64,000 nucleotides of DNA from Eledone cirrhosa (GCA_964016885.1 OZ024741.1:238204001-238268000); one strand, 5' to 3'; shown: positions 9,682 to 59,712, counted from the first letter of the stretch. Translations and numbers: made by a program. Notes: a model not told the origin generated them from the letters alone.

Positions 9682-9761
9682 CTACGTTGGCTGTAGATAG
9701 GTATCTTGTACTTGTTGTCCCTTTTGTATTGTGACTGGAACTGGATTGTCATTGGTATATT
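9682..9761 (-). CDS. Protocadherin P2 terminal coding exon (EYTNDNPVPVTIQKGQQVQDTYLQPT*)
   Basis: Acceptor tattttccag|AA. Phase 1 matches the preceding exon. TAG at 9684-9682. Conserved in six copies. Confidence 0.8.
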
Positions 9762-9919
9762 CTGGAAAATATAAAATATAGAAATAGAATTATATTTCAA
9801 TATAACAACACTGTAAAGATATAAACATTGATGTTATATTACACTAACTATAACATTACATAATGTCTTACAGTAATTAAGGGAATTATATTTCTATGTT
9901 ATGTTTAGATAAAAGTTAC

Positions 9920-10067
9920 CTGGTTGTGCAGATATCTCTTCATATGGTTTAGTCTTGCCAATACTCTTGTAACCTTCTCTGCTTTTTTGTGATGTTAAGG
10001 TGTCACTGTTGTAGTTAGACATGCTGAGACTGCTGCGACCTTCATGACTATGGATTGAATCACATCT
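9920..10067 (-). CDS. Protocadherin P2 cytoplasmic exon, 148 nt (RCDSIHSHEG...KPYEEISAQP)
   Basis: atccacag|AGA acceptor and CCAG|GTAACT donor. Open in phase 0. Same length in all six complete copies. Confidence 0.85.
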
Positions 10068-10324
10068 CTGTGGATTATAAAAGGGGGATGATGATGAATA
10101 TAGAGTGATATTAACTAAATAATATTCTATATTTACTTTCTGGAGTATTCTTCCTAATAATGAAAAAATTACATCTCTAAAGATTGGAAAACAAGGCAGA
10201 ATGAATCATGATGTTAACTGGAATAAATCCTTAGTACGACACAAGAAATAAATTTAGGAATAGATGGTAATTATAGGATGAAAAGATAAAATCAATAACA
10301 GCAATATCAAAAAATAATATTTAC

Positions 10325-12724
10325 CTGTGGAACTGGTGGAAGTCTCCTTTGTGTTGTTGAGAATTTCCACTCGTCTGGTAGCTGTTCCATCTCTGGATAA
10401 AACTGACCTTTAGATTTTATTGTCTGAAGATTTCTGTTAAATATCTCTTCTGCATTTCTGGTTATTGCAACAGGATTGTTAGTTTGATACAATAATTGTC
10501 TCATCTCAGTCTGAGACAGAAAGTTTGGATTATCTGCTGTTGTAGGTGAGTTATTGGTGTGATTAATACATCTGAAAACACACAGTGTTATTGACACTAC
10601 AATAGCCACAGATATTATTACAGCTGCTGCTACAATGATAATTACCCAAGTCATATTGAGATCATTACCAGACTGTAAGTGGACAGCATTCAACATTGGA
10701 GATGTATCATTACTAACAAACAGTGTTAGTATGATAACAGTTGTTGCTGATTGAACTGGAGTACCACCATCTTTCACTATAAACTGTAGGTCATATGTTC
10801 CTGCATCATTTTGGTAAACTGTCCGAGAGAAAGATAAGACACCAGTATGGGAGTTGACTGTAAACAGGTTTTTATCATTAGATCTCAGTATTCCATATGT
10901 GAGGAAAGCATTGTTTCCAGTGTCTTTGTCAGAGGCTTTAAGAATGGTGATGTCTTTCTTACTGTGTGGATGGTAGTGGACATCTAGATTGTAAGGGTCA
11001 TTAATAGGAAAGGTAAAATAGGGAGCATTATCATTTTTATCTAGAATCTCAATAACAATATTGGCAGTGTCATTCAGAGAAGGTGTTCCATTATCTTTGA
11101 CTAAAACCTGGAAGTTATAGATGTCTTTTACTTCCCGGTCTATTGATTGTGATGTAGAAATAAATCCATATTTTGTAAGTTGGAAAGGAATAATATCATT
11201 GTTGTTATCATTGATGATAGAATATGTAAGTAGACCTCCATCTTCAAGATCAGGGTCTGTAGCATTGATGAAGCCAATAGGGAAGTCAACTTTCTGGTTT
11301 TCATAGGTGAGGAATTGGAATGTATCTTTGGTAAAATGTGGCTGTACATCATTGACATCAGTTACTTTCACTGAGAAATACTTCTTAGTTTCTAGTTGAG
11401 GTGATCCCATGTCATGACATGCAATAGATACTTTATAGTGGTCCTTTATTTCTCTATCAAGATGTCCCTTAACAATCATTTTATATTCTTTAGAATCTAT
11501 TTTGGTAAGTTTAAATTTATCATGTTTTAAATCACAGCTAACCTCACCATTAGGTCCAACATCAGTGTCAGTGACCATAACATAAGCTATAAAACTATCT
11601 ATTTCACTGTCTTCTGAAACTGCTGTGGAACTTTCTGTCAAAGGTGATACAAAATCTATATTTATCACTGGAGCATTATTCTGGTTATTAATTATGTAAA
11701 TATGAACTCTGGTAACAGACTTTAGGGGAGGTTTGCCCTCATCTTGTGCATCAATAAACAATTTATAAGATTGCATCTTGCTAACGTGAAAATTATCATG
11801 TAAATACAACTCTCCAGTTTTCTTATCTAATACAAAATATTTCTGGACATTTCGAGATGTTTTATGGTTGAAATGATAAGAAATCTTTCCATTGTCTCCA
11901 GAATCTAGATCTGTGGCTTTTAATGTAAGAATTGGTAAATGTCTTTGATGTGAATTATTTATAGATATGTTGTAGACTTTCTGTGAAAATACAGGTGTGT
12001 TATCATTAACATCTGTCACAGCTATGTGTACCTTGAGGGTAGCTGTCTGTGGAGGGTTCCCTCCATCTTTAGCTTCAAGTGTCAACATATATGAGTCTTT
12101 TATTTCCCTGTCTAATTTATCTTCTAAATTTAGGGCTGGTATGAAGACACCATCATCTTGTTTTGTGACAAAAAGAGAAAATGGTTCTTTCTTACTTTTT
12201 CTTATCATGTATGTAATTTGAGAATTCTTTATTGAAATATCTTGGTCAATGGCATTTGGAAGAAGATTTTTAGTCCCTTTACTATCTCTCTCTAGAAATT
12301 CAATTGTAACTTCATTCACTGGAAATTCTGGTGAATGATCATTGATGTCTTCTATAAATATTTTTATTTTAAGAATTTTCATGAAGGTTTTTCCCTTCCT
12401 CACTGCTACTTTAACAATTCTGGAACATTCCTTGTTATATGTACACAGAGACTCAGCATCCAGTGTCTGTGTAGTGTATAGTTTTCCTGTGTTGGTGACA
12501 TTGAATAAGTGAGAACCACTTGACACCGTCCTTTGCAGTTGTGTAAATGTTATGAGAGTGTGTTGTTGATGTGTAAGAGAGTGTGTTAAGTTAGAATCAA
12601 CAGCAATGTCTCCTATATAGGTGTGAAGACTGTCTTCTTCATTGACATGGTATGTAATGTCTATAGACAGTACAAGGTTTATCAATAAATGTAGTAGACA
12701 GAGTAGACCAATATATGTTGTCAT
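10325..12724 (-). CDS. Protocadherin P2 large exon (800 codons; SP, 6 EC, TM, proximal tail)
   Basis: Cadherin motifs DxNDxxP, LDRE and DxD; EC1 C-x5-C; TM WVIIIVAAAVIISVAIVVSITLCVF; donor CAG|GTAAAT after PVPQ. Confidence 0.96.
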
Positions 12725-15404: not shown

Positions 15405-15484
15405 CTATGTTGGCTGTAGATAGGTATCTTGTACTTGTTGTCCCTTTTGTATTGTGGCTGGAACTGGATTGTCATTGGTATATT
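15405..15484 (-). CDS. Protocadherin P3 terminal coding exon
   Basis: 80 nt, ttccag|AA acceptor, TAG stop; paralogous to 9682-9761. Confidence 0.8.
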
Positions 15485-15643
15485 CTGGAAAATATAAAAT
15501 ATAGAAACAGAAATTATATTTCAATATAACAACTCTGTAAAGATATAAACATTGTTGTTATATTACACTAAACATAACATTAAATATTGTCTTACAGTAA
15601 TAAAGAGACTTATATTTCTATGTTATGTTTAGATAAAAGTTAC

Positions 15644-15791
15644 CTGGCTGTGCAGATATCTCTTCATATGGTTTACCCTTGCCAATACTCTTGTAACCTT
15701 CTCTGCTTTTTTGTGATGTTAAGGTGTCACTGTTGTAGTTAGACAAGCTGAGACTGGTGCGACCTTCATGACTATGGATTGAATCACATCT
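15644..15791 (-). CDS. Protocadherin P3 148-nt cytoplasmic exon
   Basis: Canonical AG/GT; paralogous to 9920-10067. Confidence 0.85.
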
Positions 15792-16126
15792 CTGTGGATT
15801 ATGAAAAAAAAGCTGAGTTTATCATAATGTTAACTTGAATAGTTTTATAAATATTATCTAAGATTTTCTTGCTATGGCACAAGATAAAGATAGTATGGTA
15901 AGAATCATATCTAAACTAATACTCTAAAACTAAAGAGTCATATCAACAGGAATATTATAATGAACTATTTTCTCTGTTAATATAAATAATGTAAAGAATA
16001 AACAAAAACAGATTTACATGGTAAATGAAATATTTATGTGTAAATATTAATTTTAGTCAATTCTGTAAAATGTAAAATTTTGAAAAAGTTATTTTCTTTC
16101 ATCAACGTTCTTCATTTACAAATTTC

Positions 16127-18685
16127 TGGTGAGGAATGTACCTCCAAATATAACTTAGTTGTCAGCGACCTCATTGTCAGAACTAGATGAACTTGGAAAC
16201 AGAAGGCAACCTGAAGAAAGATATGGAAGCTGAAAGACCCCTCAGCCAGTAACAGATTTAAAAGGTATCTTACTCGATGCCTATGACAGTAAAGAAGAAC
16301 AGATAGAGACATTCAATGTAGAACAGCACTGGGAGTTCCTAAAAAATAACTTACTAAAGGCGACGGACGAGATCTGTGGTTGGAGCAAAACCATAGGGAG
16401 GAGGAGAGTGAGTTGGTGGTGGAACAATAATGTAGATGAGGCAATTAAGGCCAAGAGACAGGCATGGAAAGAATGGAAGAAGGGGGGAAGCAGGTACATT
16501 ACATAGAGACCAGGAGGGAAGCTAGGTGACAAGTATTCTTAGCTAGAAGGGAAGCAGAAGATAGAAAATTCAAGCATATTTTGCAGCGTGAGGACCAGAA
16601 ACAGGAGGTGTTCAGGATTGCGAGGCAGTGTGTTAGAGAGAATTGTGATGTCAGTGGAGAGAAGTGTGTCCGGAATGATAAAGGTGAGCTTGCCCTCACA
16701 AGTGCTGAGAAGAAAGATGTGTGGAAGAGTCATTATGAAAGATTACTAAATGAGGAGAATGCATGGGAGAAAGAGACCCTACACTAAGTAGACCCTATAG
16801 AGGGGCCAACAGTACAAGTCAGCAGCAGCGTAGTAAGTAAGGCAATTAAAGATATGAAGTCTGGGAAGGCAACCGGTCTATCGGGTATAGCTGCCGAGGT
16901 GCTGAAAGCATCTGGGTCGGTAGGTCACACCATAACCACACGTATTGTTAACCAGGTAATACAAGAGGGTATCATACCAAAGGATTGGTGCAGCAGCATC
17001 ATTGTCAACTGCTACAAGAGTAAAGGTGATGCACTATATAAAGCTGATGGACCAGGTCATGAAACTAATGGAAAGAGTTATAGCACAGTTGATTAGGGAC
17101 TGGGTAAAACTAGATGAGATGCCCTCTTTCTTGTGAAGCAGTTACAGGAAAAGTACCTAGCCGCTCTACCTGGCATTCGTCGATCTGGAAAAAGCCTTCG
17201 ACAGAGTTCCCCATGCTATAATCCGGTGGGCTCTTAGAAAACTAGGAGTAGATGAATGGCTTGTAAAAGCTGTATAGGGGAGCAGACAGCAAGGTTAGGG
17301 TTAACAATGACTATAGCGAGGAATTTAGCATGCAGGTCGGTGTCCACCAGGGCTCTGTTCTTAGTCCTCTCCTGTTCATCATAGTTTTGCAGGCAATAAC
17401 GGAGGAATTTAAGACCGGATGCCCATGAGAACTCCTATATGCGGATGATCCCGCACTTATAGCTGAATCTATGGTGGAACTAGAGAAGAAATTCCAAACA
17501 TGGAAGCAGGGACTAGAAAGAAAGGGTCTCAAAGTTAACCTGACAAAGACTAAGGTCCTCATAAGTAGACGAGAAAACAGAACCCAGATCCCCTCAGGGA
17601 AATGGCCTTGCTCAGTATGTAGGAACTCCATCCTCTGCCAAATGTAAACAATGGGTACACAAGAGATGTAGGGAGATCTCAGGAAGCTTAGCTAAGAATG
17701 TAGGCTTTACATGTAGCAGCTGTGCTGGGACAGCAAGCAGCAAACGGCCACAGGAAACAAGTGCCACTAAACTCTGGGAGGGCTCTGTAGAAACAGTGGA
17801 CAGCTTTTGCTACCTAGGTGACCGAATTAACAGTGGAGGTGGGTGTTCGGAAAGTCCAGTAACCAGGTTAAGAACGGGGTGGGAACTACTGCCACTGCTA
17901 GCTGCAAATGGCTTTTCCCTCAAAAATGAAAGGCAGACTGTATGATGCGTGTATACGAACAGCAATGTTACATGGTAGTGAGACCTGGGCATTGTCTGTG
18001 GAAGGCTTACGTAGATTAGAAAGAAATGAAGCCTGCATGCTCCGATGGATGTGTAATAGTAATATACGCGAACGGCAAAGCATAAATGAATTGAGAGAGA
18101 GACTGAGCATAAGAGGAATCAAATGCTGTGTGCAGGAGAGGAGGTTGCGTTGGTATGGACATGTGATGCGTATGAAGGATGACAGCTGCATAAAAAGGTG
18201 CAGGGCACTAAAAGTCGATGGAAGTTGTGGAGTAGGGAGACACAAGAAGACCTAGGATTAGGTGATAAAAGCCGACCTTACCCAATTGCACCTCTCAAAG
18301 GCGATGACACACGACTGTGATCTCTGGCGTCACGCAGTAATACAGAAGACTCGACTTCCCACGGGTACAAGCCGAAGCTGAAGCATATAGACAATATGCC
18401 ACCCCCGCAAAGTCGTTTTGGAGGTGCCATGGCCAAAAAGCACCCAGCCCACTCTGTAAAGTGGACGTGTAGGCGCCATGGAAAAAAAGCACCCAGCACC
18501 CACTGTAAATGAGGTTGGCGTTAGGAAGAGCATCCAGCTGTAGAAATCAAACCTGAATCAGTTCCAGTATGAGCAAGACAAGGTCAGCCGTCCAGACACT
18601 GCTCATAACAAGACAACCCGTCCTAACCCATGCTACCATGGAAGAATGGACGTAAAATGGTGAAAATGATGATGATGATGAACAA
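16127..18685 (+). mobile_element. 5'-truncated, decayed RTE-clade LINE in a P3 intron (antisense to the gene)
   Basis: End of endonuclease, RT motifs (AFVDLEKAFDRVP, VGVHQGSVLSPLLF, ELLYADD), WPCSVC..WVHKRC finger, RLRWYGHVMR, and an (ATG)n tail. Absent from the matching introns of P4 and P5. Multiple stops and frameshifts. Confidence 0.92.
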
Positions 18686-18777
18686 CATATAAATAAAACA
18701 AGATGTTTAAGATATCTTATGAAGCATGTCATGAAAAATTAATATTCAATACTTGATTTATTTCAAATAATATTTAC

Positions 18778-21177
18778 CTGAGGAACTGGTGGAAGTCTCC
18801 TTTGTGTTGTTGAGAATTTCCACTCATCTGGTAGCTGTTCCATCTCTGGATAAAACTGACTTTTAGATTTTATTGTCTGAAGATTTCTAGCAAATATATC
18901 TTCTGCATTTCTAGTTATTGCAACAGGATTGTTAGTCTGATACAATAATTGTCTCATCTCAGTCTGAGACAGAAAGTTTGGATTATCTGCTGTTGTAGGT
19001 GAGTTATTGGTGTGATTAATACATCTGAAAACACACAGTGTTATTGACACTACGATAGCCACAGATATTATTACAGCTGCTGCTACAATGATAATTACCC
19101 AAGTCATATTGAGGTCGTTACCAGTCTGTAAGTGGACAGCATTCAACATTGGAGATGTATCATTACTAACAAACAATGTTAGTATGATAACAGTTGTTGC
19201 TGATTGAACTGGAGTACCACCATCTTTCACTATAAACTGTAGGTCATATGTTCCTGCATCATTTTGGTAAACTGTCCGAGAGAAAGATAAGACACCAGTG
19301 TGGGAGTTGACTGTAAACAGGTTTTTATCATTAGATCTCAGTATTCCATATGTGAGGAAAGCATTGTTTCCAGTGTCTTTGTCAGAGGCTTTCAGAATGG
19401 TGATGTCTTTCTTACTGTGTGGATGGTAGTGGACATCTAGATTGTAAGGGTCATTAATAGGAAAGGTTAAATAGGGAGCATTATCATTTTTATCTAGAAT
19501 CTCAATAACAATATTGGCAGTGTCATTCAGAGAAGGTGTTCCATTATCTTTGACTAAAACCTGGAATTTATAGATGTCTTTCACTTCCCGATCTATTGAT
19601 TGTGATGTAGAAATAAATCCATATTTTGTAAGTTGGAAAGGAATGTTATCATTGTTGTTTTCATTGATGATAGAATATGTAAGTTGACCTCCATCTCCAA
19701 GATCAGGGTCAGTAGCATTGATGAAGCCAATAGGGAAGTCAACTTTCTGGTTTTCATAGGTGAGGAATTGGAATGTATCTTTGGTAAAATGTGGCTGTAC
19801 ATCATTGACATCAGTTACTTTCACTGAGAAATATTTCTTAGTTTCTAGCTGAGGTGATCCCATGTCATGACATACAATAGATACTTTATAGTGGTCCTTT
19901 ATTTCTCTATCAAGATGTCCTTTAATAATTAAATTATATTCTTTAGAATCTATTTTGGCAAGTTTAAATTTATCATGTTTTAAATCACAGCTAACCTCAC
20001 CATTAGGTCCAACATCAGTGTCAGTGACCATAACATAAGCTATAAAACTATCTAGTTCACTGTCTTCTGAAACTGCTGTGGAACTTTCTGTTAAAGGAGA
20101 TACAAAATCTATATTTATCACTGGAGCACTATTCTGGTTATTAATTATGTAAATATGAACTCTGGTAACAGACTTTAGGGGAGGTTTTCCTTCATCACGT
20201 GCATCAATAAATAATTTATAAGATTGCATCTTACTAAAGTTAAAATTATCATGTAAAAATATCTCTCCAGTTTTCTTATCTAATACAAAATATTTCAGGG
20301 CATTTCGTGATGTTTTATGGTTGAAATGATAAGAAATCTTTCCGTTGTGTCCAGAATCTAAATCTGTGGCTTTTAAAGTAAGAATTGGTAAATGTCTTTG
20401 ATGTGAATTATTTATAGATATGTTGTAGACTTTCTGTGAAAATACAGGTGTGTTATCATTAACATCTGTCACAGCTATGTGTACTTTGAGGGTAGCTGTT
20501 TTGGGAGGGTTCCCTCCATCTTTAGCTTCAAGCATTAAGATATATGAGTCTTTTAGTTCCCTATCTAATTTCTCTTTTAAATTTAGGGCAGGTATGAAGA
20601 CACCATCATCTTGTTTTGTGACAGAGAGAGAAAATGTTTCGCTCTGACTTTTCTTTAACATGTATGTAATTTGAGAATTCTTTTTTGAAACATCTTGATC
20701 AATGGCATTTGGAAGAGAGATTTTATCTCCTTTACTGTCTCTCTCAAAAAATTCAATTGTAACTTCATTCTCTGGAAATTCTGGTGAATGGTCATTGATG
20801 TCTTCTATAAATATTTTTATTTTGATAATTTTCATGAAAGTTTTTCCTTTCCTTACTGCTACTTTAACGATTCTGGAACATTCCTTGTTATATGTACACA
20901 GTGACTCAGCATCCAGTGTCTGTGTAGTGTATAGTTTTCCTGTGTTGGTGACATTGAATAAGTGAGAACCACTTGACACTGTCCTTTGTAGTTGTGTAAA
21001 TGTAATGAGAGTGTGTTGTTGATGTGTAAGAGAGTGTGTTAAGTTAGAATCAACAGCAATGTCTCCTATATAGGTGTGAGGACTGGCTTCTTCATTGACA
21101 TGATATGTAATGTCTATAGACAGTACAAGGTCTATCAGTAAATATAGTAGACAGAGTAGACCAATATATGTTGTCAT
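18778..21177 (-). CDS. Protocadherin P3 large exon
   Basis: Same motifs as P2; donor CAG|GTAAAT at 18778. Confidence 0.96.
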
Positions 21178-24837: not shown

Positions 24838-24917
24838 CTATGTTGGCTGTAGATAGGTATCTTGTACTTGTTGTCCCTTTTGTATTGTGGCTGGAACTGG
24901 ATTGTCATTGGTATATT
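24838..24917 (-). CDS. Protocadherin P4 terminal coding exon
   Basis: 80 nt, AG acceptor, TAG stop. Confidence 0.8.
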
Positions 24918-25076
24918 CTGGAAAATATGAAACATAGAAACAGAAATTATATTTGAATATAACAACTCTGTAAAGATATAAACATTGTTGTTATATTACA
25001 CTAAAGATAACATTAAATATTGTCTTACAGTAATAAAGAGACTTATATTTCTATGTTATGTTTAGATAAAAGTTAC

Positions 25077-25224
25077 CTGGTTGTGCAGATATCTCTTCAT
25101 ATGGTTTACCCTTGCCAATACTTTTGTAACCTTCTCTGCTTTTTTGTGATGTTAAGGTGTCACTGTTGTAGTTAGACATGCTGAGACTGGTGCGACCTTC
25201 ATGACTATGGATTGAATCACATCT
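25077..25224 (-). CDS. Protocadherin P4 148-nt cytoplasmic exon
   Basis: Canonical AG/GT; paralogous exon. Confidence 0.85.
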
Positions 25225-25651
25225 CTGTGGATTAGAAAGGAGAACAGAATGAATCCTGATGTTAAGTTGAATAGATTTTTACATCTATAACCTAAGTTGC
25301 TCTTACTATGAAACAAAAAAGGAAATCAAAGTAAAAGGATAAATATATTATGGCAAGAGTCCTACCTAAACTAAGATACCTCTAAAACTAAAGAGCCATA
25401 TCAACTGGAATATTATAATGTCAAGAATAAATAAAAACAAATTTACTCGGTAAATGGAATATTTATGTGTAAATGTTAATTTTAGGCAATTCTGTAAAAT
25501 GTGAAATTTTGAAAAAGTTATTTTTCTCATCAACGTCCTTCATTTTAAAACTATAAAATGTAATGACTAAAACAAGATGTTTAAGATATCTTATGAGGCA
25601 TATCATGAAGGATTAGTATTCAATACTTGATTTATTTCAAATAATATTTAC

Positions 25652-28051
25652 CTGAGGAACTGGTGGAAGTCTCCTTTGTGTTGTTGAGAATTTCCACTCA
25701 TCTGGTAGCTGTTCCATCTCTGGATAAAACTGACTTTTAGATTTTATTGTCTGAAGATTTCTAGCAAATATATCTTCTGCATTTCTAGTTATTGCAACAG
25801 GATTGTTAGTCTGATACAATAATTGTCTCATCTCAGTCTGAGACAGAAAGTTTGGATTATCTGCTGTTGTAGGTGAGTTATTGGTGCGATTAATACATCT
25901 GAAAACACACAGTGTTATTGACACTACAATAGCCACAGATATTATTACAGCTGCTGCTACAATGATAATTACCCAAGTCATATTGAGGTCATTACCAGAC
26001 TGTAAGTGGACAGCATTCAACATTGGAGATGTATCATTACTAACAAACAGTGTTAGTATGATAACAGTTGTTGCTGATTGAACTGGAGTACCACCATCTT
26101 TCACTATGAACTGTAGGTCATATGTTCCTGCATCATTTTGGTAAACTGTCCGAGAGAAAGATAAGACACCAGTATGGGAGTTGACTGTAAACAGGTTTTT
26201 ATCATTAGATCTCAGTATTCCATATGTGAGGAAAGCATTGTTTCCAGTGTCTTTGTCAGAGGCTTTCAGAATTGTGATGTCTTTCTTACTGTGTGGATGG
26301 TAGTGGACATCTAGATTGTAAGGGTCATTAATAGGAAAAGTAAAATAGGGAGCATTATCATTTTTATCTAGAATCTCAATAACAATATTGGCAGTGTCAT
26401 TCAGAGAAGGTGCTCCATTATCTTTGACTAAAACCTGGAATTTATAGATGTCTTTCACTTCCCGATCTATTGATTGTGATGTAGAAATAAATCCATATTT
26501 TGTAAGTTGGAAAGGAATGTTATCATTGTTGTTATCATTGATGATAGAATATGTAAGTTGACCTCCATCATCAAGATCAGGGTCTGTAGCATTGATGAAG
26601 CCAATAGGGAAGTCAACTTTCTGGTTTTCATAGGTGAGGAATTGGAATGTATCTTTGGTAAAATGTGGCTGTACATCATTGACATCAATTACTTTGACAA
26701 AGAAATATTTCTTAGTTTCTAGTGGAGGTGATCCCATATCATGACATACAATAGATACTTTATAGTGGTCCTTTATTTCTCTATCAAGATGTCCCTTAAT
26801 AATTACATTATATTCTTTAGAATCTATTTTGGCAAGTTTAAATTTATCATGTTTTAAGTCACAGCTAACCTCACCATTAGGTCCAACATCAGTGTCAGTG
26901 ACCATAACATAAGCTATAAAACTATCTAGTTCACTGTCTTCTGAAACTGTTGTGGAACTTTCTGTTAAAGGAGATACAAAATCTATATTTATTACTGGAG
27001 CATTATTCTGGTTATTAATTATGTAAATATGAACTGTAGTAACAGACTTTAAGGGAGGTTTTCCTTCATCACGTGCATCAACGAATAATTTATAGGATTG
27101 CATCTTACTAAAGTGAAAATTATCATGTAAAAATATCTCTCCAGTTTTCTTATTTAATATAAAATATTTCAGTGCATTTCGAGATGTTTTATGGTTGAAA
27201 TGATAAGAAATCTTTTGATTGTCTCCAGAATCTAGATCTGTAGCTTTTAATGTAAGAATTGGTAAATGTCTTTGATGTGAATTATTTATAGATATGTTGT
27301 AGACCTTCTGTGAAAATACAGGTGTGTTATCATTAACATCTGTCACAGCTATGTGTACCTTGAGGGTAGTTGTTTTGGGAGGGTTCCCTCCATCTTTAGC
27401 TTCAAGTATTAACATATATGAGTCTTTTACTTCTCTGTCCAATTTGTCCCTTAAATTTAGCTCTGGTATGAAGACACCATCATGTTGTTTTGTGACAGAG
27501 AGAGAAAATGGTTCTCTCTTACTTTTCCTTATCATATATGTAATTTGAGAATTCTTTATTGAAACATCTTGATCAATGGCATTTGGAAGAGAGATTTTGG
27601 CTCCTCTACTAGCTATTTCAGAAAATTCAATTTTAACTTCACTGTTGGGAAATTCTGGTGAATGGTCATTGATGTCTTCTATAAATATATTTATCTTGAG
27701 AATTTTCATAAAGGCTTTTCCCTTCCTTACTGCTACTTTAAGAATTCTGGAACATTCCTTGCTATATGTACACAATAACTCAGCATCTAGTGTCTGTGTA
27801 GTGTATAGTTTTCCTGTGTTGGTGACATTAAATAAGTGAGAACCACTTGACACTGTCCTTTGTAGTTGTGTAAATGTAATGAGAGTGTGTTGTTGATGTG
27901 TAAGAGAGTGTGTTAAGTTAGACTCAACAGCAATGTCTCCTATATAGGTGTGAGGACTGTCTTCTTCATTGACATGGTATGTAATGTCTATAGACAGTAC
28001 AAGGGTCATCAGTAAATGTAGTAGACAGAGAAGACCAACATATGCTGTCAT
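25652..28051 (-). CDS. Protocadherin P4 large exon
   Basis: Same motifs as P2; donor at 25652. Confidence 0.96.
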
Positions 28052-31605: not shown

Positions 31606-31685
31606 CTATGATGGCTGTAGATAGGTATCTTGTACTTGTTGTCCCTTTTGTATTGTGACTGGAACTGGATTATCATTGGTATATT
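31606..31685 (-). CDS. Protocadherin P5 terminal coding exon (ends YLQPS*)
   Basis: 80 nt, AG acceptor, TAG stop. Confidence 0.8.
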
Positions 31686-31784
31686 CTGGAAAATATAAAA
31701 TATAGACACAGAAATTATATTTCAACATAACAACTCTGTAAAGATATAAACATTTATGTTATATTATACTACCATAAGATTATA

Positions 31785-32760
31785 TACCAACTTAAAGAAT
31801 GACACAGTGCTGAAATACACAGATGACATCAAGCTGTAACTTGAGATGAAAAGGACAGATCCTGTATATTATAGATCTTTCCTGCAATCAGACCTGGACA
31901 CAATGTAGCAATGGATTATGCATTGGCAACTCAAGCTGGCTATAGACAAGTGTACCACCATGCATTTTGGGAGGAAAAACCCAGTGTTCACATACTCCCT
32001 CCATAGCACTAATCTCAAGAAGTTTTCTTGTGGAAGTGACCTGGGTATTACTGTCAGCAGCGATTTGTGTTGGACAAAGCACATTTCTAAAATTGTCAAA
32101 GAGGCTGAAGGTGACTTAGCATCACCCAGTAAGATCTTTGCCAGCTGCTCTCCAGCTATCTATTTAAAGTTGTATATAGCTATGGTGTGGCCATACTTAG
32201 AATTTGCATCACCAGTTGGAACCCCTATCTAGCTCAGAATATTGACCTCTTGAAAACTGGTCAGGGATGTGCAACTAAATGAATACCCTCTATTAGGCAT
32301 CTACCATAATCTGAATGCCTTCCTTCACTGGGCATGGATACATACTGGGATATGACTTGGTAAACACCCACAAAATTATTAACCATCTTACCAACAACAA
32401 ATTTGAGCACCATGTGTCTAACACCAATGGACATGTTTACAAAGTCAGAAAACAGCACAACTCCCATGACTTTCAGAAACACTTTTTCACATCAGAGTTG
32501 CTGAAGCATGGAACAAACTATCTGCATCGGTTGTTAGCTTTTGGGACACTGCATTCTTCAAAACTTCCATGCATTCTGAAATTTGCCAACACTACACCTG
32601 ATGTTCCCCATCCATACACCCACACACATGTATCCGTGTGTATATCATGACTCATACTCTGTTCACTTTCCAGAGATTTGTACATTTTTCTATGTACTAT
32701 ACATGCAACTTTGATGAGTTGTAGTGCATCTGAGCACGGTACACAATAATTTTCATTATT
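31785..32760 (+). mobile_element. 5'-truncated CR1/L2-group LINE in the last intron of P5
   Basis: Degenerate YTDD motif, WQLKLAIDKC, LEFASPV and an aataatttcattatt tail. Same family as 40650-41710 and 46205-48950. Confidence 0.88.
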
Positions 32761-32829
32761 GTTTTTATTTATTTGTATACAGTAATAGAAGGGAATTATA
32801 TTTCTATTTTATGGTTAGATAAAAGTTAC

Positions 32830-32977
32830 CTGGTTGTCCACGTATCTCTTCATATGGTTTAGTTTTGCCAATACTCTTGTAACCTTCTCTGCTTTTTTGT
32901 GATGTTAAGGTGTCACTGTTGTAGTTAGACATGCTGAGACTGGTGCGACCTTCATGACTATGGATTGAATCACATCT
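32830..32977 (-). CDS. Protocadherin P5 148-nt cytoplasmic exon (...PYEEIRGQP)
   Basis: Canonical AG/GT; visible within ORF 32804-33010. Confidence 0.85.
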
Positions 32978-33402
32978 CTGTGGATAAAAAAAAAAAGCTG
33001 AGTGAATCATGTTAACTTGAATAGAGTTTTATATATTATCTAAGTTTTTCTTGCTGTGGCACAAGATAAAGATAGTATGGTAAGAATCATATCTAAACTA
33101 AAACTACTCTAAAACTAAAGACTCATATCAACTGGAATATAATAATTAAGTATTTTCTCTGTTCATATAAATAATGTAAAGGATAAACAAAAACAAATTT
33201 ACTGGGTAAATGAAATATATATGTGTAAATATTAATTTTAGTCAAATCTGTAAAATGTAAAATAATGAAAAAGTTTTTTATTAACGTTCTCATTTACAAA
33301 TTTTTAAAATTTAATAAATAAAAATATATGTTTAAGATATCTTATGAAGCATATCATGATGAATTAGAATTCAAAACTAGAATTATTTCAAATAATATTT
33401 AC

Positions 33403-35805
33403 CTGAGGAACTGGTGGAAGTCTCCTTTGTGTTGTTGAGAATTTCCACTCATCTGGTAGCTGTTCCATCTCTGGATAAAACTGACTTTTAGATTTTATTG
33501 TCTGAAGATTTCTAGCAAATATATCTTCTGCATTTCTAGTTATTGCAACAGGATTGTTAGTCTGATACAGTAATTGTCTCATCTCAGTCTGAGACAGAAA
33601 GTTTGGATTATCTGCTGTTGTAGGTGAGTTATTGGTGTGATTAATACATCTGAAAACACACAGTGTTATTGACACTACAATAGCCACAGATATTATTACA
33701 GCTGCTGCTACAATGATAATTACCCAAGTCATATTGAGGTCATTACCAGACTGTAAGTGGACAGCATTCAACATTGGAGATGTATCATTACTAACAAACA
33801 ATGTTAGTATGATAACAGTTGTTGCTGATTGAACTGGAGTACCACCATCTTTCACTATAAACTGTAGGTCATATGTTCCTGCATCATTTTGGTAAACTGT
33901 CCGAGAGAAAGATAAGACACCAGTATGGGAGTTGACTGTAAACAGGTTTTTATCATTAGATCTCAGTATTCCATATGTGAGGAAAGCATTATTTCCAGTG
34001 TCTTTGTCAGAGGCTTTCAGAATTGTGATGTCTTTCTTACTGTGTGGATGGTAGTGGACATCTAGATTGTAAGGGTCATTAATAGGAAAAGTAAAATAGG
34101 GAGCATTATCATTTTTATCTAGAATCTCAATAACAATATTGGCAGTGTCATTCAGAGAAGGTGTTCCATTATCTTTGACTAAAACCTGGAAGTTATAGAT
34201 GTCTTTCACTTCCCGATCTATTGATTGTGATGTAGAAATAAATCCATATTTTGTAAGTTGGAAAGGAATGTTATCATTGTTGTTATCATTGATGATAGAA
34301 TATGTAAGTTGACCTCCATCATCAAGATCAGGGTCTGTAGCATTGATGAAGCCAATAGGGAAGTCAACTTTCTGGTTTTCATAAGTGAGGAATTGGAATG
34401 TATCTTTGGTAAAATGTGGCTGTACATCATTGACATCAGTTACTTTGACTGAGAAATATTTCTTAGTTTCTAGTTGAGGTGATCCCATGTCATGACATAC
34501 AATAGATACTTTATAGTGGTCCTTTATTTCTCTATCAAGATGGCCTTTAATAATCATTTTATATTCTTTAGAATCTATTTTGGCAAGTTTAAATTTATCA
34601 TGTTTTAAATCACAGCTAACCTCACCATTAGGTCCAACATCAGTGTCAGAGACTATAACATAAGCTATAAAACTATCTAGTTCACTGTCTTCTGAAACTG
34701 CTGTGGAACTTTCTGTTAAAGGTGATACAAAATCTATATTTATCACTGGAGCATTATTTTGGTTATTAATAATGTAAATATGAACTGTGGTTACAGAACT
34801 AAGTTGAGGATTCCCTCCATCGCGTGCTTCAAAAAACAATTTGTAGGACTGTTTTCCACCTAAATTAAAATTATCTTTCAAAAATATCTCTCCATTTTTC
34901 TCTTTCAATAGAAAATGTTTCTGGATACTTTGAGATGTTTTATGGTTGAAATGATAGAAAATCCTTCCATTGTTTCCAGAATCTAGATCTGTAGCTTTTA
35001 AAGTAAGAATTGGTAAATGTCTTTGATATAAATTATTTATAGATATATTGTAGACTTTCTGGGAAAATACAGGTGCATTATCATTAACATCTGTCACGGC
35101 AATGTATACCTTGAGGGTAGTTGTTTGGGGAGGGTTCCCTCCATCTTTAGCTTCAAGTGTCAACATATATGAGTCTTCTAGTTCTCTATCTAATTTCTTT
35201 TCTAAATTTAGGGCAGGTATGAAGACTCCATCATGTCGTCTTGTCATGTACAAAGAAAATGGTTCTCTTTCCTGTGTCACTATTTTATATGTAATTTGTG
35301 AATTTATGGTGGTAATATCTCTATCTATGGCATATGGTATTATCTTTCTGCTGCCTTTAAGGCTGTCTTCTGCAAATCTAACAGTGATTTTATCAACAAA
35401 AAATTCTGGAGAATTATCATTGATATCTTCAATGATTATCTTGAGTTTTAACATCTTCATAAAAGTTTTTCCTTTCCTCACTGCTACTTTAACAATTCTG
35501 GAACATTCCTTGTTATATATACACAGTGACTCAGCATCTAGTGTCTGTGTAGTGTATAGTTTTCCTGTGTTGGTGGCATTGAATAAGTGAGAACCACTTG
35601 ACACTGTCCTTTGTAGTTGTGTAAATGTAATGAGAGTGTGTTGTTGATGTGTGAGAGAGTGTGTTAAGTTAGAATCAATAGCAATGTCTCCTATATAGGT
35701 GTGAGGACTGTCTTCTTCATTGACATGGTATGTAATGTCTACAGACACTATAACCGACTGTTGTAAATATAATAAATACACCAGGTAAATGATATTTCCA
35801 CTCAT
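33403..35805 (-). CDS. Protocadherin P5 large exon
   Basis: Same motifs as P2; donor at 33403. Confidence 0.96.
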
Positions 35806-39975: not shown

Positions 39976-40055
39976 CTATGTTGGCTGTAGATAGGTATCT
40001 TGTACTTGTTGTCCCTTTTGTATTGTGGCTGGAACTGGATTGTCATTGGTATATT
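39976..40055 (-). CDS. Protocadherin P6 terminal coding exon
   Basis: 80 nt, AG acceptor, TAG stop. Confidence 0.8.
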
Positions 40056-40213
40056 CTGGAAATATAAAATATAGAAAAAGAAATTATATTTCAATATAAC
40101 AACTCTGTAAAGAGATAAACATTGATGTTATATTACACTAACCATAACAATATATATTGTCTTACAGTAATAAAGGGAATTACATTTCTATGTTATGTTT
40201 AGATAAAAGTTAC

Positions 40214-40361
40214 CTGGTTGTGAAGGTATCTCTTCATATGGTTTAGTCTTGCCAATACTTTTGTAACCTTCTCTGCTTTTTTGTGATGTTAAGGTGTCAC
40301 TGTTGTAGTTAGACATGCTGAGACTGGTGCGACCTTCATGACTATGGATTGAATCACATCT
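40214..40361 (-). CDS. Protocadherin P6 148-nt cytoplasmic exon (...PYEEIPSQP)
   Basis: Canonical AG/GT. Confidence 0.85.
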
Positions 40362-40649
40362 CTGTGGATTATAAAAGATATCAGAGTGAAATAAGAGTTT
40401 TAACTAGAATAAATCTTTACATATATATTTTAGATCATCCATTGACAGATTTAAGAATACAAGTAGAATACAACAGCAATTAAATAATTTCAATAAATCT
40501 GTGATTAATCACAATAAACCACTTATCTGTATATGTATTAAACTGAATTGACTTAAATATTTTACTCAAGAGATTTTATTGTCACTAAAATGACAATGGA
40601 AAACAGTGATATCAAGAGTAATGAAATCAGAATAAAAGAAGACATTTTT

Positions 40650-41710
40650 TGACTGAATACTTTAGTTTTGTTTCTTGCATATATTAATGACACATATGCT
40701 AACTTAAAGAATGCCATAGTGCGAAAATATGCAGATGATATCAAGTTGTACCTTGAGATAAAAAGGACAGATTCTGAACACTATAGATCTTTCTTGCAAT
40801 CTGATCTGGACACAATGCAGCAATGGATCAAGGACTGGCAACTCAAGCTGGCTGTGGACAAGTGTACCACCATGTATTTTGGGAGAAAAAACCCAGTGTT
40901 CACATACTCCCTCCACAATACTAATCTCAAGAAGACTTCTTGTGAATATGACCTGGGTATTATTGTCAGTAGTGATTTGCATTGGACAAAACACATCTCT
41001 AAAATTGTCAAGAAGGCCGAGGGTGTCTTAGCATCACTCAGCAAGACCTTTGTCAGCCGCTCTCCAGCTATCTATTTAAAGCTGTATATAGCTATGGTGT
41101 GGCCACACTTAGAATTTGCATCACCAGTCTGGAACCCCTATCTTGCTCAAAATATTGACCACTTGGAAACTGTTCAGAGACGTGCAACCAAGCATATACC
41201 CTCCATCAGGCATCTACCATACTCCTCTGAATGCCTTGCTTCCCTGGGCATGGATACATTGAAACTCCGCCGTCTAGCAACTGACTTGGTAAACACCTAA
41301 ATATTATTAACCATCTTGCCAACAACAACCCTGAACACCTTTTTGAATTCCATGAGTCTAACACTCGTGGGCATGCCTACAAAGTCAGAAAACGGCACAA
41401 CTCCCATGACTTTTGGAAACATTCATTTACGCTCAGAGTTGCTGAAGCATGGAACAAACTACCTGCATCGGTTGTTAGCTGTCAGGAAATTACATCCTTC
41501 AAAACTTCCACGCTTCCGGAAATTTACTAACACTACACCTGATATTCCACCTCCATATACATGCATGCATGTATCTGTGTGTATATCATGACTGTTCACT
41601 TTCCTGACATTTGTACATTATTCTATGTACTATACATGCACCTTTGATGAATTGTAATACACCTGAGCACTGTTCACAATAATTTCATTATTATTATTAT
41701 TATTACTATA
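40650..41710 (+). mobile_element. 5'-truncated CR1/L2-group LINE in a P6 intron
   Basis: YINDT..KYADDIKL, LEFASPVWNPYL..ETVQRRATK and an (ATT)n tail. Confidence 0.9.
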
Positions 41711-42369
41711 AATATTTAGAATAAAACATGATAATTGTTTTTCATTCACATATTCAATGTCTTAAATATTCATTTACTTTCAATTACTGTTGAATAGAGT
41801 GAGAAATAAACTTGTTATTTATAATCTTATTAGTGTGCATAAATGTTGAAGCACAAACATAAAGAGAGCAAATCTTGATATAAGAAGAACTGAGATCTAG
41901 TGGGTAAGAAGAAACAATGTATAGGTATTGAAAGGTAATGTGAATGGATGATGATCATTAGATGAAGAATGCCAGAAGTTCCAAGTGGAAGGAAGATTTG
42001 GTAGAAGGAGGCTGAGGAATAGATGGGCAAAGATCGTGAAAGCTGATCTTAGGATACTAAGCTCCACAAATGAGATGACACAGCTAATCCATGCATGCTT
42101 GGAAATTGATGTAAATTGATGTAAATGATGATGATTTTATTGGTGTAAATAGAAACACGTTCATGGGTTAAATTAAATATCTATATCTACATATTAGATC
42201 TAGTTAATTATATAAAAATATTTTCTTCCAGTAAAGAAACGTTTTTGTTAATAAAATCCTACAATGTGTGACATATTAGAATGCCAATTAAATTGAAAAT
42301 ATTAAAATATGTTTCTAAAATGTTATCAAAGGTTGATCAATACTAGAATTGTTGAAAGCAAATATTTAC

Positions 42370-44772
42370 CTGAGGAACTGGTGGAAGTCTCCTTTGTGTT
42401 GTTGAGAATTTCCACTCATCTGGTAGCTGTTCCATCTCTGGATAAAACTGACTTTTAGATTTTATTGTCTGAAGATTTCTAGCAAATATATCTTCTGCAT
42501 TTCTCGTTATTGCAACAGGATTGTTAGTCTGATACAGTAATTGTCTCATCTCAGTTTGAGACAGAAAGTTTGGATTATCTGCTGTTGTAGGTGAGTTATT
42601 GGTGTGATTAATACATCTGAAAACACACAGTGTTATTGACACTACAATAGCCACAGATATTATTACAGCTGCTGCTACAATGATAATTACCCAAGTCATA
42701 TTGAGGTCGTTACCAGACTGTAAGTGGACAGCATTCAACATTGGAGATGTATCATTACTAACAAACAGTGTTAGTATGATAACAGTTGTTCCTGATTGAA
42801 CTGGAGTACCACCATCTTTCACTATAAACTGTAGGTCATATGTTCCTGCATCATTTTGGTAAACTGTCCGAGAGAAAGATAAGACACCAGTATGAGAGTT
42901 GACTGTAAACAGGTTTTTATCATTAGATCTCAGTATTCCATATGTGAGGAAAGCATTGTTTCCAGTGTCTTTGTCAGAGGCTTTCAGAATTGTGATGTCT
43001 TTCTTACTGTGAGGATGGTAGTGGACATCTAGATTGTAAGGGTCATTAATAGGAAAGGTAAAATAGGGAGCATTATCATTTTTATCTAGAATCTCAATAA
43101 CTATATTGGCAGTGTCATTCAGAGAAGGTGTTCCATTATCTTTGACTAAAACCTGGAATTTATAGATGTCTTTCACTTCCCGATCTATTGATTGTGATGT
43201 AGAAATAAATCCATATTTTGTAAGTTGGAAAGGAATGTTATCATTGTTGTTATCATTGATGATAGAATATGTAAGTTGACCTCCATCTCCAAGATCAGGG
43301 TCTGTAGCATTGATGAAGCCAATAGGGAAGTCAACTTTCTGGTTTTCATAGGTGAGGAATTGGAATGTATCTTTGGTAAAATGTGGCTGTACATCATTGA
43401 CATCAGTTACTTTGACAGAGAAATATTTCTTAGTCTTTAACTGAGGTGATCCCATGTCATGACATAGAATTGATACTTTATAGTGGTCCTTTATTTCTCT
43501 ATCAAGATGTCCTTTAATAATCATTTTATATTCTTTAGAATCTATTTTGGCAAGTTTAAATTTATCATGTTTTAAATCACAGCTAACCTCACCATTAGGT
43601 CCAACATCAGTGTCAGAGACTATAACATAAGCTATAAAACTATCTATTTCACTGTCTTCTGAAACTGCTGTGGAACTTTCTGTTAAAGGTGATACAAAAT
43701 CTATATTTATCACTGGAGCATTATTCTGGTCATTAATTATGTGAATTCGAACTGTGGTTACAGAACGTAAGGAGGGACTTCCTTCATCCCGTGCTTCAAT
43801 AAATAATTTGTAAGTTTGTTTCTCTCCAAAACTAAAATTATCTTTTAAATATATCTCTCCATTTTTTTCTTTCAATACAAAATGTTTCTGGGCATTTTGA
43901 GATGTTTTATGGTTGAAATGATAAGTAATCTTCCCATTGTTTCCAGAATCTAGATCTGTGGCTTTTAAAGTAAGAATTGGTAAATGTCTTTGATGTGAAT
44001 TATTTATAGATATGTTGTAGATTTTCTGTGAAAATATAGGTTTGTTATCATTGACATCTGTCACAGCTATGAGTACCTTGAGTGTAGCTGTTTGGGGAGG
44101 GTTCCCTCCATCTTTAGCTTCAAGTGTCAACATATATGAGTTCTCCAGTTCCCTGTCTAATTTCTTTTCCAGAGTAAGTTCTGGTGTGAAGACACCATCA
44201 TTTTGTTTTACCATATACAAAGAAAATGGTGCTCTATTACTGTTCATTATTTTATAAGTGATTTGTGAATTTATGGTGGTAATATCTCTGTCTATAGCAT
44301 ATGGAATTATCTTTCTTGTTCCTTTAAAACTGTCCTCAGCAAATTGAACAGTGATTTTGTCAACAGAAAACTCTGGTAAATGGTCATTGATGTCTTTAAT
44401 GATTATCTTGAGTTTTAACATCTTCATAAAAGTATTTCCTTTCCTCACTGCTACTTTAACAATTCTGGAACATTCCTTGTTATATGTACACAGAGACTCA
44501 GCATCCAGTGTCTGTGTAGTGTATAGTTTTCCTGTGTTGGTGACATTAAATAAGTGAGAACCACTTGACACCGTCCTTTGTAGTTGTGTAAATGTAATGA
44601 GAGTGTGTTGTTGATGTGTAAGAGAGTGTGTTAAGTTAGAATCAACAGCAATGTCTCCTATATAGGTGTGAGGACTGTCTTCTTCATTGACATGATATGT
44701 AATGTCTACAGACACTATAACCGACTGTTGTAAATATAGTAAACACACCAGGTAAATGATATTTCCACTCAT
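42370..44772 (-). CDS. Protocadherin P6 large exon
   Basis: Same motifs as P2; donor at 42370. Confidence 0.96.
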
Positions 44773-56547: not shown

Positions 56548-56627
56548 CTATGTTGGCTGTAGATAGGTATCTTGTACTTGTTGACCCTTTTGTATTGTGG
56601 CTGGAACTGGATTGTCATTGGTATATT
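56548..56627 (-). CDS. Protocadherin P7 terminal coding exon
   Basis: 80 nt, ttctag|AA acceptor, TAG stop. Confidence 0.8.
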
Positions 56628-56777
56628 CTAGAAAATATAAAATATAGAAATGGAAATTATATTTCAATATAACAACTATGTAAAGATATAAACATTGATG
56701 TTTTGATGTTATATCACACTAACTATAACATTATATATTGTCTGACAGTAACAAAGAGAATTATATTTCTATGTTAT

Positions 56778-57114
56778 CATCATCATCATCATTTTACGTC
56801 CGCTTTTCCCTGCTTGCAAGGGTGGGACGGGAACTGATTCTGGCTTGATTTCTACAGCTGGATGCCCTTCCTAACGCCAACCTCATTTACAGTGAGTGCT
56901 GGGTGCTTTTTTGCCGTGGCACCTCCACGACCACTTTGCAGTGGAATGATATGGACCCCAGTCCCTATCATATCATTTCTACAGCTGAGTAAACTGGAGC
57001 AATGTGAAATAAAGTGTCTTGCTCAAGGAAACAACACATCACCCGGTCTAAGAATTGAACTCACAACCTTTCGATTGCAAGGCCAATGCTCTAACCACTA
57101 AGCCATGTGCCTCC
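56778..57114 (-). mobile_element. Full-length tRNA-derived SINE with RTE-type 3' tail
   Basis: Head GGAGGCACATGGCTTAGTGGTTAGAGC with box B GAGTTCAATTC. Tail shared with the RTE at 18500-18680, ending (ATG)n. TSD ATGTTAT at 56771-56777 and 57115-57121. The site is empty in P2, P3, P4 and P6. Confidence 0.9.
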
Positions 57115-57138
57115 ATGTTATGTTTAAATAAAAGTTAC

Positions 57139-57286
57139 CTGGTTGTGCAGATATCTCTTCATATGGTTTAGTCTTGCCAATACTCTTGTAACCTTCTCTG
57201 CTTTTTTGTGATGTTAAGGTGTCACTGTTATAGTTAGACATGCTGAGACTGGTGCGACCTTCATGACTATGGATTGAATCACATCT
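57139..57286 (-). CDS. Protocadherin P7 148-nt cytoplasmic exon
   Basis: Canonical AG/GT. Confidence 0.85.
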
Positions 57287-57969
57287 CTGTGGATTATAAA
57301 AGAGGGATGATGATGAATATATGTAATATCTAATGTATCAGAGATGTAAATTCAGGGTCATGATATATGTAATTGCAAATAAGCTTGTTGTGTGTGATGT
57401 TTAAAAGAAATACAGAGTCAAAGTTTATTATAATGTTAACTTGAATAGACCGTCAATAACACAAGAAAATCATTTTATGTAGAATAAATCAATCAATTAT
57501 TTATCTTTTACTTATTCTAGCTAGTGGGTTGTGACCATACTGTGGTTTCTAGTTGTTTAAAATCATATCAAGAAATATTGAATGATCAGCTGGAAACAGT
57601 AAAACAGAGAATCAACAGTGTATAATCTAAGTAAAATAAATAAATAAATAAATATAATCCTTTATGTATTTATTATATTAGAGTACCAACAGAAAGCCTG
57701 TCTTGCAACGTGAGGACCAGAAACAGCAGGTGTTCAAGATTGGGAGGCAGTGTGTCAAAGGGAATTGAGATGTCATTGGAGAGAAGCTGTAGAAATCAAG
57801 CCAGAACCAGTTCCCATATGAGTAAAACACAACAGGACTACCTGTCTAACCCATGCTAGTGTGGAAGAACGGACGTAAAACGGTGATGATGATGATGATG
57901 ATACACACACACGTGTGTGTGTGTGTATCATCATCATCATCATCACCGTTTTACGTCCGTTCTTCCACA

Positions 57970-58303
57970 TATCATCATCATCATTTCATTTTACGTCCGC
58001 TTTTCCCTGCTTGCAAGGGTGGGACGGGAACTGATTCTGGCTTGATTTCTACAGCTGGATGCCCTTCCTAACACCAACCTCATTTACAGTGAGTGCTGGG
58101 TGTTTTTTGCCGTGGTACCTCCACGACCACTTTGCAGTGGAATGATAGGGATCCCAGTCCCTATCATCTCATTTCTACAGCTGAGTAAAATGTGAAATAA
58201 AGTGTCTTGCTCAAGGAAACAACAAATCACCCGGTCTGAGAATTGAACTCACAACCTTTCGATTGCAAGGCCAATGCTCTAACCACTAAGCCATGTGCCT
58301 CCA
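57970..58303 (-). mobile_element. Second copy of the RTE-tailed tRNA SINE
   Basis: Near-identical to 56778-57114. Confidence 0.88.
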
Positions 58304-58311
58304 CTTATATG

Positions 58312-58380
<69 letters not shown>

Positions 58381-58387
58381 GATATAC

Positions 58388-59120
58388 ACACACATATATA
58401 TAGAGAGACTAGCATTAAAGCCCGGCGCTGCTCGGGGCATTAAGTTATCAAAGTTAGGTTGCACCACCCATTTTATGGCAGCACTTTTTTGTCTGCCAGG
58501 CACTGGGTGAATGAATTGCAGACCTGGAAGCAGGAGCTGCGCCAGCAGTGACAATTGTAGTTTTGCCTATGGATATTATCTCTGTGCAAAAAAGTGTTGG
58601 AATTTAATTGTTTCACAGTACTTGCGCAACACACGCGTAGACGATGCCAGCCGAACAACAGAGCTGCGATGGAGTTGTTCTGCATGGTTGTCTGTGTGTT
58701 TTCTAAATTTAAGACAGTAGGGAGGGGTGTGATATGGGGGAGAGTTAGCTGCTGTTTCTAGCAGGTTTAGTAACCTCATAGAGGATATGTGTTTTCTAAA
58801 TTTAAGACAGTAGGGAGTGGTGTGAACGGACAGTATCACCATCAAGCTTGGAAAGAGAAAGTAGCAGAAAGTATGAAGTTGTATAGATTTTGAATGGTAG
58901 TGGAAAGAGTTTAGCAGTTTAAATGACAGAGAAAAGTCGTAAAATATTGAGTTTTATCTATTTTTTGCGTAATTGTGGGTGAAATTGAAAAAATTATCTG
59001 CGTCAAGACGCAATCGAAATTGTTTCGGATTCTGAGTGGTAAATTTCAATTGAAGAAATTCTATATTGTAAATTTCTATAACGAAGGAGCTTGACCACAC
59101 ACTGAGCTTTATAGATTATG
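58388..59120 (+). mobile_element. Non-autonomous Helentron/DINE-like element
   Basis: Starts ACTAGC plus hairpin cccggcgctgctcggg and ends gagctttatagattatgat. Internal direct repeat tgtgttttctaaatttaagacagtaggga. Inserted in microsatellite. Confidence 0.5.
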
Positions 59121-59636: not shown

Positions 59637-59712
59637 TATATATATATATCAACACAGGTCATTAAACTTATGTCCACCTCAAAGCCATCATGAGATCTAA
59701 AATTATATTTAC

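Follow-up and report, generated by a model that had tools for sequence, protein, structure and literature searches.

Docking of a Src-family kinase at two points has been described for cytosolic proteins. In FAK, the SH3 ligand RALPSIP (residues 368–374) ends 23 residues before the phosphotyrosine pY397 (PMC6528292), and the Src-binding domain of p130Cas contains RPLPSPP together with YDYV (PMC8542790, PMC2956669). RXLPPXP is the class I consensus bound by Src-family SH3 domains (PMC9221966), pYEEI is tabulated as the Lck/Src SH2 consensus (PMC2271153, Table 1) and pYEEIP has been termed optimal for Src-family SH2 domains (PMC4140816, PMC7337045); SH3 ligands are able to activate these kinases by themselves (PMC4140816). 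As for protocadherins, vertebrate Pcdh-alpha (CNR) is quoted as having been reported to bind Fyn (PMC6339937), and alpha and gamma Pcdh have been linked to Pyk2 and FAK (PMC7339444). PMC6339937 reports no recognised intracellular motif in the 150–290 cephalopod protocadherins and describes their partners as unexplored. The coleoid motif lists given there comprise EC, TM and a PP1 pattern only, with no vertebrate-like tail motifs; the SH2/SH3-type motifs and the CM1-like block described below are absent from these lists, and the motif table as quoted from Albertin 2015 contains no SH2/SH3-type tail motif. Our literature search, the scope of which did not include Albertin 2015 and Wang and Ragsdale 2017 themselves, retrieved no paper linking cephalopod protocadherins to Src or to tyrosine motifs.

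The window analysed here is a stretch of 64,000 nucleotides from Eledone cirrhosa (GCA_964016885.1 OZ024741.1:238204001-238268000). It contains an array of six complete octopod protocadherin genes and a seventh truncated at the window start, all on the minus strand. The six complete genes share a single layout of three exons, in which a large first exon, coding for the signal peptide, the six cadherin repeats, the TM helix and 83 tail residues, is followed by an exon of 148 nt and a short terminal one. In the gene at 12724–9682, the product of which is 875 aa long, exon 1 occupies positions 10325..12724 (open reading frame of 2400 nt, phase 0, GT donor). Pfam recognises five Cadherin domains and one Cadherin_2 domain in it, and the TM helix corresponds to the hydrophobic run in the translation at approximately residues 693–717 (10574..10648). 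The remainder of the gene consists of intron 1 (10068..10324; 257 nt, GT..AG), exon 2 (9920..10067; 148 nt, AG/GT), intron 2 (9762..9919; 158 nt, GT..AG, phase 1) and exon 3 up to the stop codon (9682..9761). The five complete paralogues are located, also on the minus strand, at 15405..21177 (exons 21177–18778, 15791–15644 and 15484–15405), 24838..28051 (exons 28051–25652, 25224–25077 and 24917–24838), 31606..35805 (exons 35805–33403, 32977–32830 and 31685–31606), 39976..44772 (exons 44772–42370, 40361–40214 and 40055–39976) and 56548..62112 (exons 62112–59713, 57286–57139 and 56627–56548). Each of the six has its own exons 2 and 3, and the array is composed of tandem whole-gene copies in the same direction with no shared constant exons. 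All 49 matches to a query comprising the TM helix and the exon-1 tail were from Octopus or Argonauta, with identity over this region reaching 95% (to O. vulgaris/sinensis). Six cadherin repeats and a TM helix within one large exon are a published feature of coleoid clustered protocadherins (PMC10084454), and tandem duplication of whole genes without shared constant exons has also been published for coleoid protocadherins (PMC9068888). By the large exon, the tandem copies and the cephalopod relatives alike, the window genes are coleoid clustered protocadherins; their closest known counterparts are the arrays on chromosome 14 of O. bimaculoides and the proteins of Octopus and Argonauta named 'protocadherin beta-15-like'.

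The six paralogues are not uniformly similar to one another: DNA identity is approximately 0.98 in EC4–6 and the tail, 0.84 in EC2–3 and 0.91 in EC1. A homogenised membrane-proximal half next to diversified recognition domains is the pattern expected from gene conversion, which has been proposed for coleoid protocadherin clusters (PMC9068888). In the tail the six copies are 97–98% identical in DNA and 92% invariant in protein (146 of 158 columns, 114 of 155 4-mers and 89 of 152 7-mers). The original prediction had stressed that the two motifs of interest, RRLPPVP and YEEI, are invariant in the copies even though the residues following YEEI vary (SAQ, RGQ or PSQ). This is true; its value as evidence is lost, and we set it aside because nearly the whole tail is invariant. 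The near-identity of the copies and the proposed gene conversion would also suit the view that the motifs are chance look-alikes without a partner, kept alike by recent duplication and conversion, and one clade of relatives does manage without YEEI. However, exons are kept far better than intron ends and UTR (0.97 versus 0.68–0.79, except that the final 60 nt of intron 2 reach 0.93), and YEE[IL]P persists between lineages whose tails are about 30% identical and in which the neighbouring columns are not conserved, so that look-alikes of this kind seem to us highly improbable. Broken pieces of LINE-type retroelements (RVT_1, endonuclease) are found in the array at 46638–48951 (minus strand) and at 40653–41300 (plus strand), the latter inside intron 1 of the gene at 44772. 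In addition, about 100 nt located 3' of the stop codon of the gene at 12724–9682 (9502–9600) are 97% identical to 57318–57418, a stretch of the first intron of the gene at 62112 that lies shortly upstream of exon 2.

The prediction had placed RRLPPVPQ at the end of the large exon and KPYEEI about 42 residues further on, in the 148-nt exon, and the coordinates confirm this arrangement. Splicing was checked with Logan contigs from four of the 24 listed runs, which represent related organisms or paralogues and the RNA status of which is guessed. Intron 2 (9762–9919) was skipped exactly in all four runs and intron 1 (10068–10324) in three of them; in the fourth run position 10039 was joined to 10325 with 19 other letters in between, corresponding to a diverged start of exon 2. 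The joins in the contigs end in CT..AC on the plus strand, i.e., GT..AG on the minus strand, and bins lying entirely within introns had zero depth in all four runs. A single 497-nt contig of run X24 spans exons 2 and 3, and the joint table assigns it 88 letters on the side of exon 1. Models of Octopus and Argonauta orthologues in GenBank/RefSeq share the same exon joins, in agreement with the contigs that the 148-nt exon is spliced in. Because intron-free contigs join exon 1 to exon 2 and exon 2 to exon 3, RRLPPVP and YEEI belong to one tail. The contigs support the exon structure, not the expression of this particular gene copy. Two database models, P0006 and P0018, display either eight additional residues before exon 2 or a doubled exon 2 with two YDEI sites, reflecting an alternative acceptor, exon duplication or an error in the model.

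RRLPPVP (10328..10348) and YEEI (9933..9944) are both encoded in all six complete genes. The motifs are real and correctly placed, and they fit the published consensus sequences, RXLPPXP (PMC9221966) and pYEEI (PMC2271153), respectively. The Tyr of YEEI lies 43 residues beyond the last Pro of RRLPPVP, with 42 residues in between, and the spacing is 42 or 43 residues in 22 of the 24 relatives that possess both motifs. The tail is predicted to be disordered (FoldIndex −0.107); a Pfam search with eight relatives and exon 2 (E-values up to 1) revealed no credible family on any tail, and a search of the PDB with exon 2 returned no matches. When the window tail was shuffled 100000 times, YEEI arose in 146 shuffles and RxLPPxP in 17, although the patterns were chosen after the fact and shuffles ignore shared descent. 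The last exon adds YTN (9751..9759) and YLQP (9688..9699), both conserved at the level of the clade only, with [ST]YLxP in 41 of the 49 homologues. The presence of YLQP, which the original prediction had listed as a YxxP site, is thus verified, but its informativeness is not, given that YxxP arose in 45075 of the 100000 shuffles (YxN in 48083). YLQP and YTN, which chance readily produces and which are weakly kept between lineages, were rejected as independent evidence.

The pattern YxxPhi, a tyrosine-based sorting signal for clathrin adaptors, is likewise present in the cytosolic tail and is near-universal by chance. YEEI might therefore act unphosphorylated, as a YxxPhi signal for endocytosis or lysosomal traffic, with the proline motif bound by an endocytic SH3 protein. 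YEEI, YEEL, YETL and YQEI all fit YxxPhi, and the best hit of an ESM Atlas search with an orthologue tail (score 0.79, below the reliable level) points to a cadherin Y-type LIR region. However, YxxPhi appeared in 76216 of the 100000 tail shuffles, and a sorting signal of this type does not need the conserved acidic residues at +1/+2 and the Pro at +4 that are found here. We consider this explanation improbable.

Conservation was assessed at two depths. Among the 49 homologues, the SH3 motif R[RK]xP[PS]xP and the tyrosine motif Y[DE]E[IVL] occur together in 23, the former alone in 20 and the latter alone in six, while none lacks both. Exact YEEI occurs in seven homologues and YDEI in 22; YDEI is the form found in the direct orthologues from O. 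vulgaris, O. sinensis and Argonauta, and distant paralogues carry YEEIP. Since 26 of the 49 homologues have one motif only, the SH3+SH2 tandem is clade-specific rather than a rule of the family, with joint conservation holding only inside the orthologous clade. At the greater depth, a profile-free HMMER search with the window TM helix and exon-1 tail yielded 16 representatives; of the ten clusters checked, eight were octopod and one had a Sepia member. From 111 octopod sequences, ten were dropped because no TM helix was found and 12 because they were short or intron-like, and the tails of the remaining 89 formed 11 clusters at 60% tail identity. Y[DE]E[IVL] is present in six of the 11 representatives of these tail lineages (shuffle mean 0.09, maximum 2 in 2000), and [RK]xLPxxP in four.

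Across 12 hand-picked octopod lineages with a mean tail identity of 30%, the Y, E, E and I of YEEI are the majority residue in 9, 9, 8 and 8 lineages, respectively, forming the sole four-column conserved run beyond exon 1 and ranking 8th of 155 4-mers. Because exon 2 was absent from the search queries, its conservation is not an artefact of selection; the values for exon 1 are inflated, since the exon-1 tail served as the query. RRLPPVP ranks 51st of 152, a mild degree of conservation in which only R, L and the first P are widely kept (10, 8 and 9 of 12 lineages), as for an older RxLP core extended in one clade, and YLQP and YTN rank 85th of 155 and 148th of 156, respectively. Y-[ED]-E-[IL] is the block of the distal tail that these lineages have kept best. 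A second conserved tyrosine is found in exon 1, in YPEM (10388..10399); the Tyr of its YPE (10391–10399, minus strand) is the most conserved residue of the tail, kept in 11 of the 12 lineages, and a membrane-near block, EM[RK]QL[LI]YQTNNP, is also well kept.

In an ectodomain tree of 30 rows, built by a quick method without bootstrap and rooted at the midpoint, with deep forks uncertain, all 11 rows with RxLPPxP in exon 1 fall into one clade (SH-aLRT 100). Within this clade the sub-clade of the window gene has the tyrosine site, which is missing from the sister sub-clade and from P0043; seven octopod rows that branch outside the clade carry YEE[IL]P but no SH3 motif. By parsimony, which is the only guide to gain versus loss in this tree, the tyrosine site is probably old, and the SH3 ligand would be specific to the clade, part of which later lost the tyrosine site. 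The expectation that the motifs extend to wider cephalopod tails was therefore borne out for the tyrosine motif (12 lineages of ~30% identity) and failed for RxLPPxP, which is confined to one clade, and for the pairing (23/49). Where YEEI stands in other tails, the sister clade (P0024–P0040, P0042, P0043 and P0061) has EYSNY and PNIPP or PEVPPKP, possibly a different SH2/SH3 kit; P0061 contains three tandem PxxPPKP repeats.

Our tentative reading, to which we assign slightly less than an even chance, is that the spliced tail is a dock for a Src-family kinase, with phospho-YEEI as the SH2 ligand and a class I SH3 ligand added upstream in one clade. Homophilic clustering of the receptor would recruit the kinase via the SH3 site, for which no phosphate is needed, and the recruited kinase would phosphorylate YEEI. 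Binding of the SH2 domain to phospho-YEEI would then lock the kinase open, as on FAK or p130Cas, and the opened kinase might go on to phosphorylate the tyrosines of YTN and YLQP, creating sites for downstream adaptors. Phosphorylation, the identity of the partner and activation of the kinase are inferred, whereas the exon structure, the motifs and the pattern of their conservation are observed; the Src link is credible but unproven. Among the findings against it are the separability of the motifs, as seen in the homologues with one of them only, the YDEI of 22 homologues, which deviates at +1 from the tabulated Src consensus, the mild conservation of RRLPPVP as a whole and the spacing, about twice that in FAK.

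SH2 and SH3 consensus motifs are common to several domain families, and the two motifs could serve different partners, the phosphotyrosine being bound by another SH2 protein (candidates include Nck/Dock, or Fer and Syk/Shark-type kinases) and RxLPPxP by another SH3 protein; the tail would then be a mix-and-match scaffold and not a two-point Src dock. Such a scaffold would be in line with the separate histories of the two motifs, each gained and lost without the other, and with the strings that replace YEEI in the sister clade, and YDEI, which falls between the Src and Nck consensus sequences, is one residue off the Nck consensus pYDE[PDV] (PMC2271153). One possible example is the PI3K regulatory subunit, binding at RxLPPxP with YPEM as its SH2 site: YxxM is present in 29 of the 49 homologues, all 29 of which also possess the SH3 motif. 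However, YxxM is absent from the other 20, including all ten closest O. vulgaris/sinensis matches, and YPEM, with Pro at +1, departs there from the tabulated p85 consensus, while Ile at +3 and Pro at +4 of the distal site are a Src-family signature and the ancestral-looking state. On balance we regard separate partners as rather unlikely. Neither tabulated alternative consensus is matched: pYDE[PDV] of the Nck SH2 domain fits neither YEEI in the window nor YDEI in the orthologues, and pY[MLI]XM of the p85 SH2 domain does not fit YPEM.

The putative Src dock resembles FAK and p130Cas in that a class I SH3 ligand precedes an SH2-type tyrosine, in the same order as in FAK, within a segment that in the octopod tail is predicted to be unstructured. 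It differs from FAK in the distance from the SH3 site to the tyrosine (43 versus 23 residues), and from both proteins in being positioned on a receptor tail instead of a cytosolic kinase or scaffold, in sharing no sequence homology with them, in being known by sequence only and in the restriction of the motif pair to one clade. Because joint conservation does not hold across the family, we do not class the octopod tail as a Src-binding module of the FAK/Cas type. Vertebrate Pcdh-alpha and Fyn provide another parallel, a protocadherin tail tied to a non-receptor tyrosine kinase, the tie being putative in the octopod case; however, the octopod expansion is independent and without shared constant exons, and the likeness would be due to convergence. 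The WIRS motif was found in none of the 49 homologues. A conserved Src-family site would give the expanded cephalopod protocadherins a named class of partner and a testable signalling route, and the patchy distribution of the motifs suggests that sub-clusters may differ in signalling output, beyond the ectodomain code.

Cuttlefish-like relatives were collected as the best 120 of 4782 matches to the ectodomain of a protein from the Sepia-containing cluster, a few of them named Sepia pharaonis. Together with the query these make 121 proteins, for 119 of which tails were obtained; 17 tails are long and not intron-like, and 102 are shorter. At the position of the octopod tyrosine site the cuttlefish-like tails are degenerate (HSEEVP, PCEKVL). 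Y[DEQR]EI, mostly as YQEI, is present in nine of the 17 long tails across the junction of exons 1 and 2 (shuffle mean 0.06), a pattern that was widened after the data had been seen. In P0122, P0127, P0147, P0154, P0155, P0184, P0208, P0217 and others, Y[QER]EI is completed only when exons 1 and 2 are spliced together. In 36 of the 102 shorter, unspliced-looking tails exon 1 ends in Y[QE], which is followed by V; intron retention would remove the junction site, and many unspliced-looking forms do end in Y[QE]V. Class I SH3 ligands occur in two of the 17 long tails, within the range of the shuffles (maximum 3), and as single cases at unrelated places: RQLPSTP in P0055, after YEEIP, RKLPLIP in P0208 and RPLPPLP at the end of P0249. 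GIYPG-like strings are found in cuttlefish-like tails at a place similar to that of the octopod YPE. No gastropod or bivalve tails were recovered among the listed search matches.

The relatives also bear on the ancestry of the tail. DSG[RH]GWSE is present in three of the 17 long cuttlefish-like tails (shuffle mean 0.01) and a looser W[SNK]x[GED][DE] block in nine; carriers of the former are P0119, P0131 and P0161 together with their cluster members. We take the DSGxGxSE strings of zebrafish and oyster to be CM1 of delta-protocadherins and the zebrafish string GHSDRCWMP to be CM2; a literature search for the CM1/CM2 strings found no paper. DSG[RH]GWSE also fits the DSGxxxS beta-TrCP degron pattern. 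It matches the zebrafish and oyster strings, DSGHGDSE (followed by the GHSDRCWMP block) and DSGRGGSE, respectively (PMC6339937 supplement), at seven of eight positions, the CM1 label being our assumption. Via octopod RGWSEGD and WSE, the CM1-like block aligns to the stretch directly before YEEI, and 9957..9986 (minus strand) is probably the decayed counterpart of its GWSE part in the window gene. Compared with delta-protocadherins, several octopod lineages retain no more of the block than GWSE, and the window gene has lost it. CM1 is absent from the gene at 12724–9682, and neither the CM2 string nor that of CM3 (RRVTF, delta-1) occurs in the six translated window tails. The original prediction had described the tail as unrelated to delta-Pcdh and without its CM motifs, which holds for the window gene and does not hold for the family. 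A search for relatives of the P0119 tail recovered only P0119 itself among 22 candidates. The statement in PMC6339937 is that O. vulgaris has no CM motifs; contrary to it, the CM1-like block would link coleoid tails to an ancestral delta-type protocadherin.

The O. vulgaris protein QBA31128 (P0054) differs from its genome-based twin P0080 at one of 852 residues, namely residue 843, where the Tyr of YEEL is replaced by Cys. No genome contig is listed for the QBA31128 record, which is probably transcript-derived. Such a difference would be expected from A-to-I editing, a widespread process in coleoids (PMC9068888), or from an allele, and a change from Tyr to Cys could switch off the phospho-site. 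On a still broader reading, the expanded coleoid protocadherins would have the docking of Src-family kinases as their shared signalling output. An ancestral YEE[IL]P located behind a CM1 relic would have been re-formed in the cuttlefish line at the junction of exons 1 and 2, where splicing itself makes the site; in the octopus clade that expanded, it would have become a two-point activator of Src, with A-to-I editing of the Tyr codon as a switch. We hold this broader reading to be unlikely; if true, it would parallel Pcdh-alpha and Fyn by convergence. Another Tyr/Cys pair, located in the exon-1 tail, is seen when P0119 is compared with P0235 and P0239.
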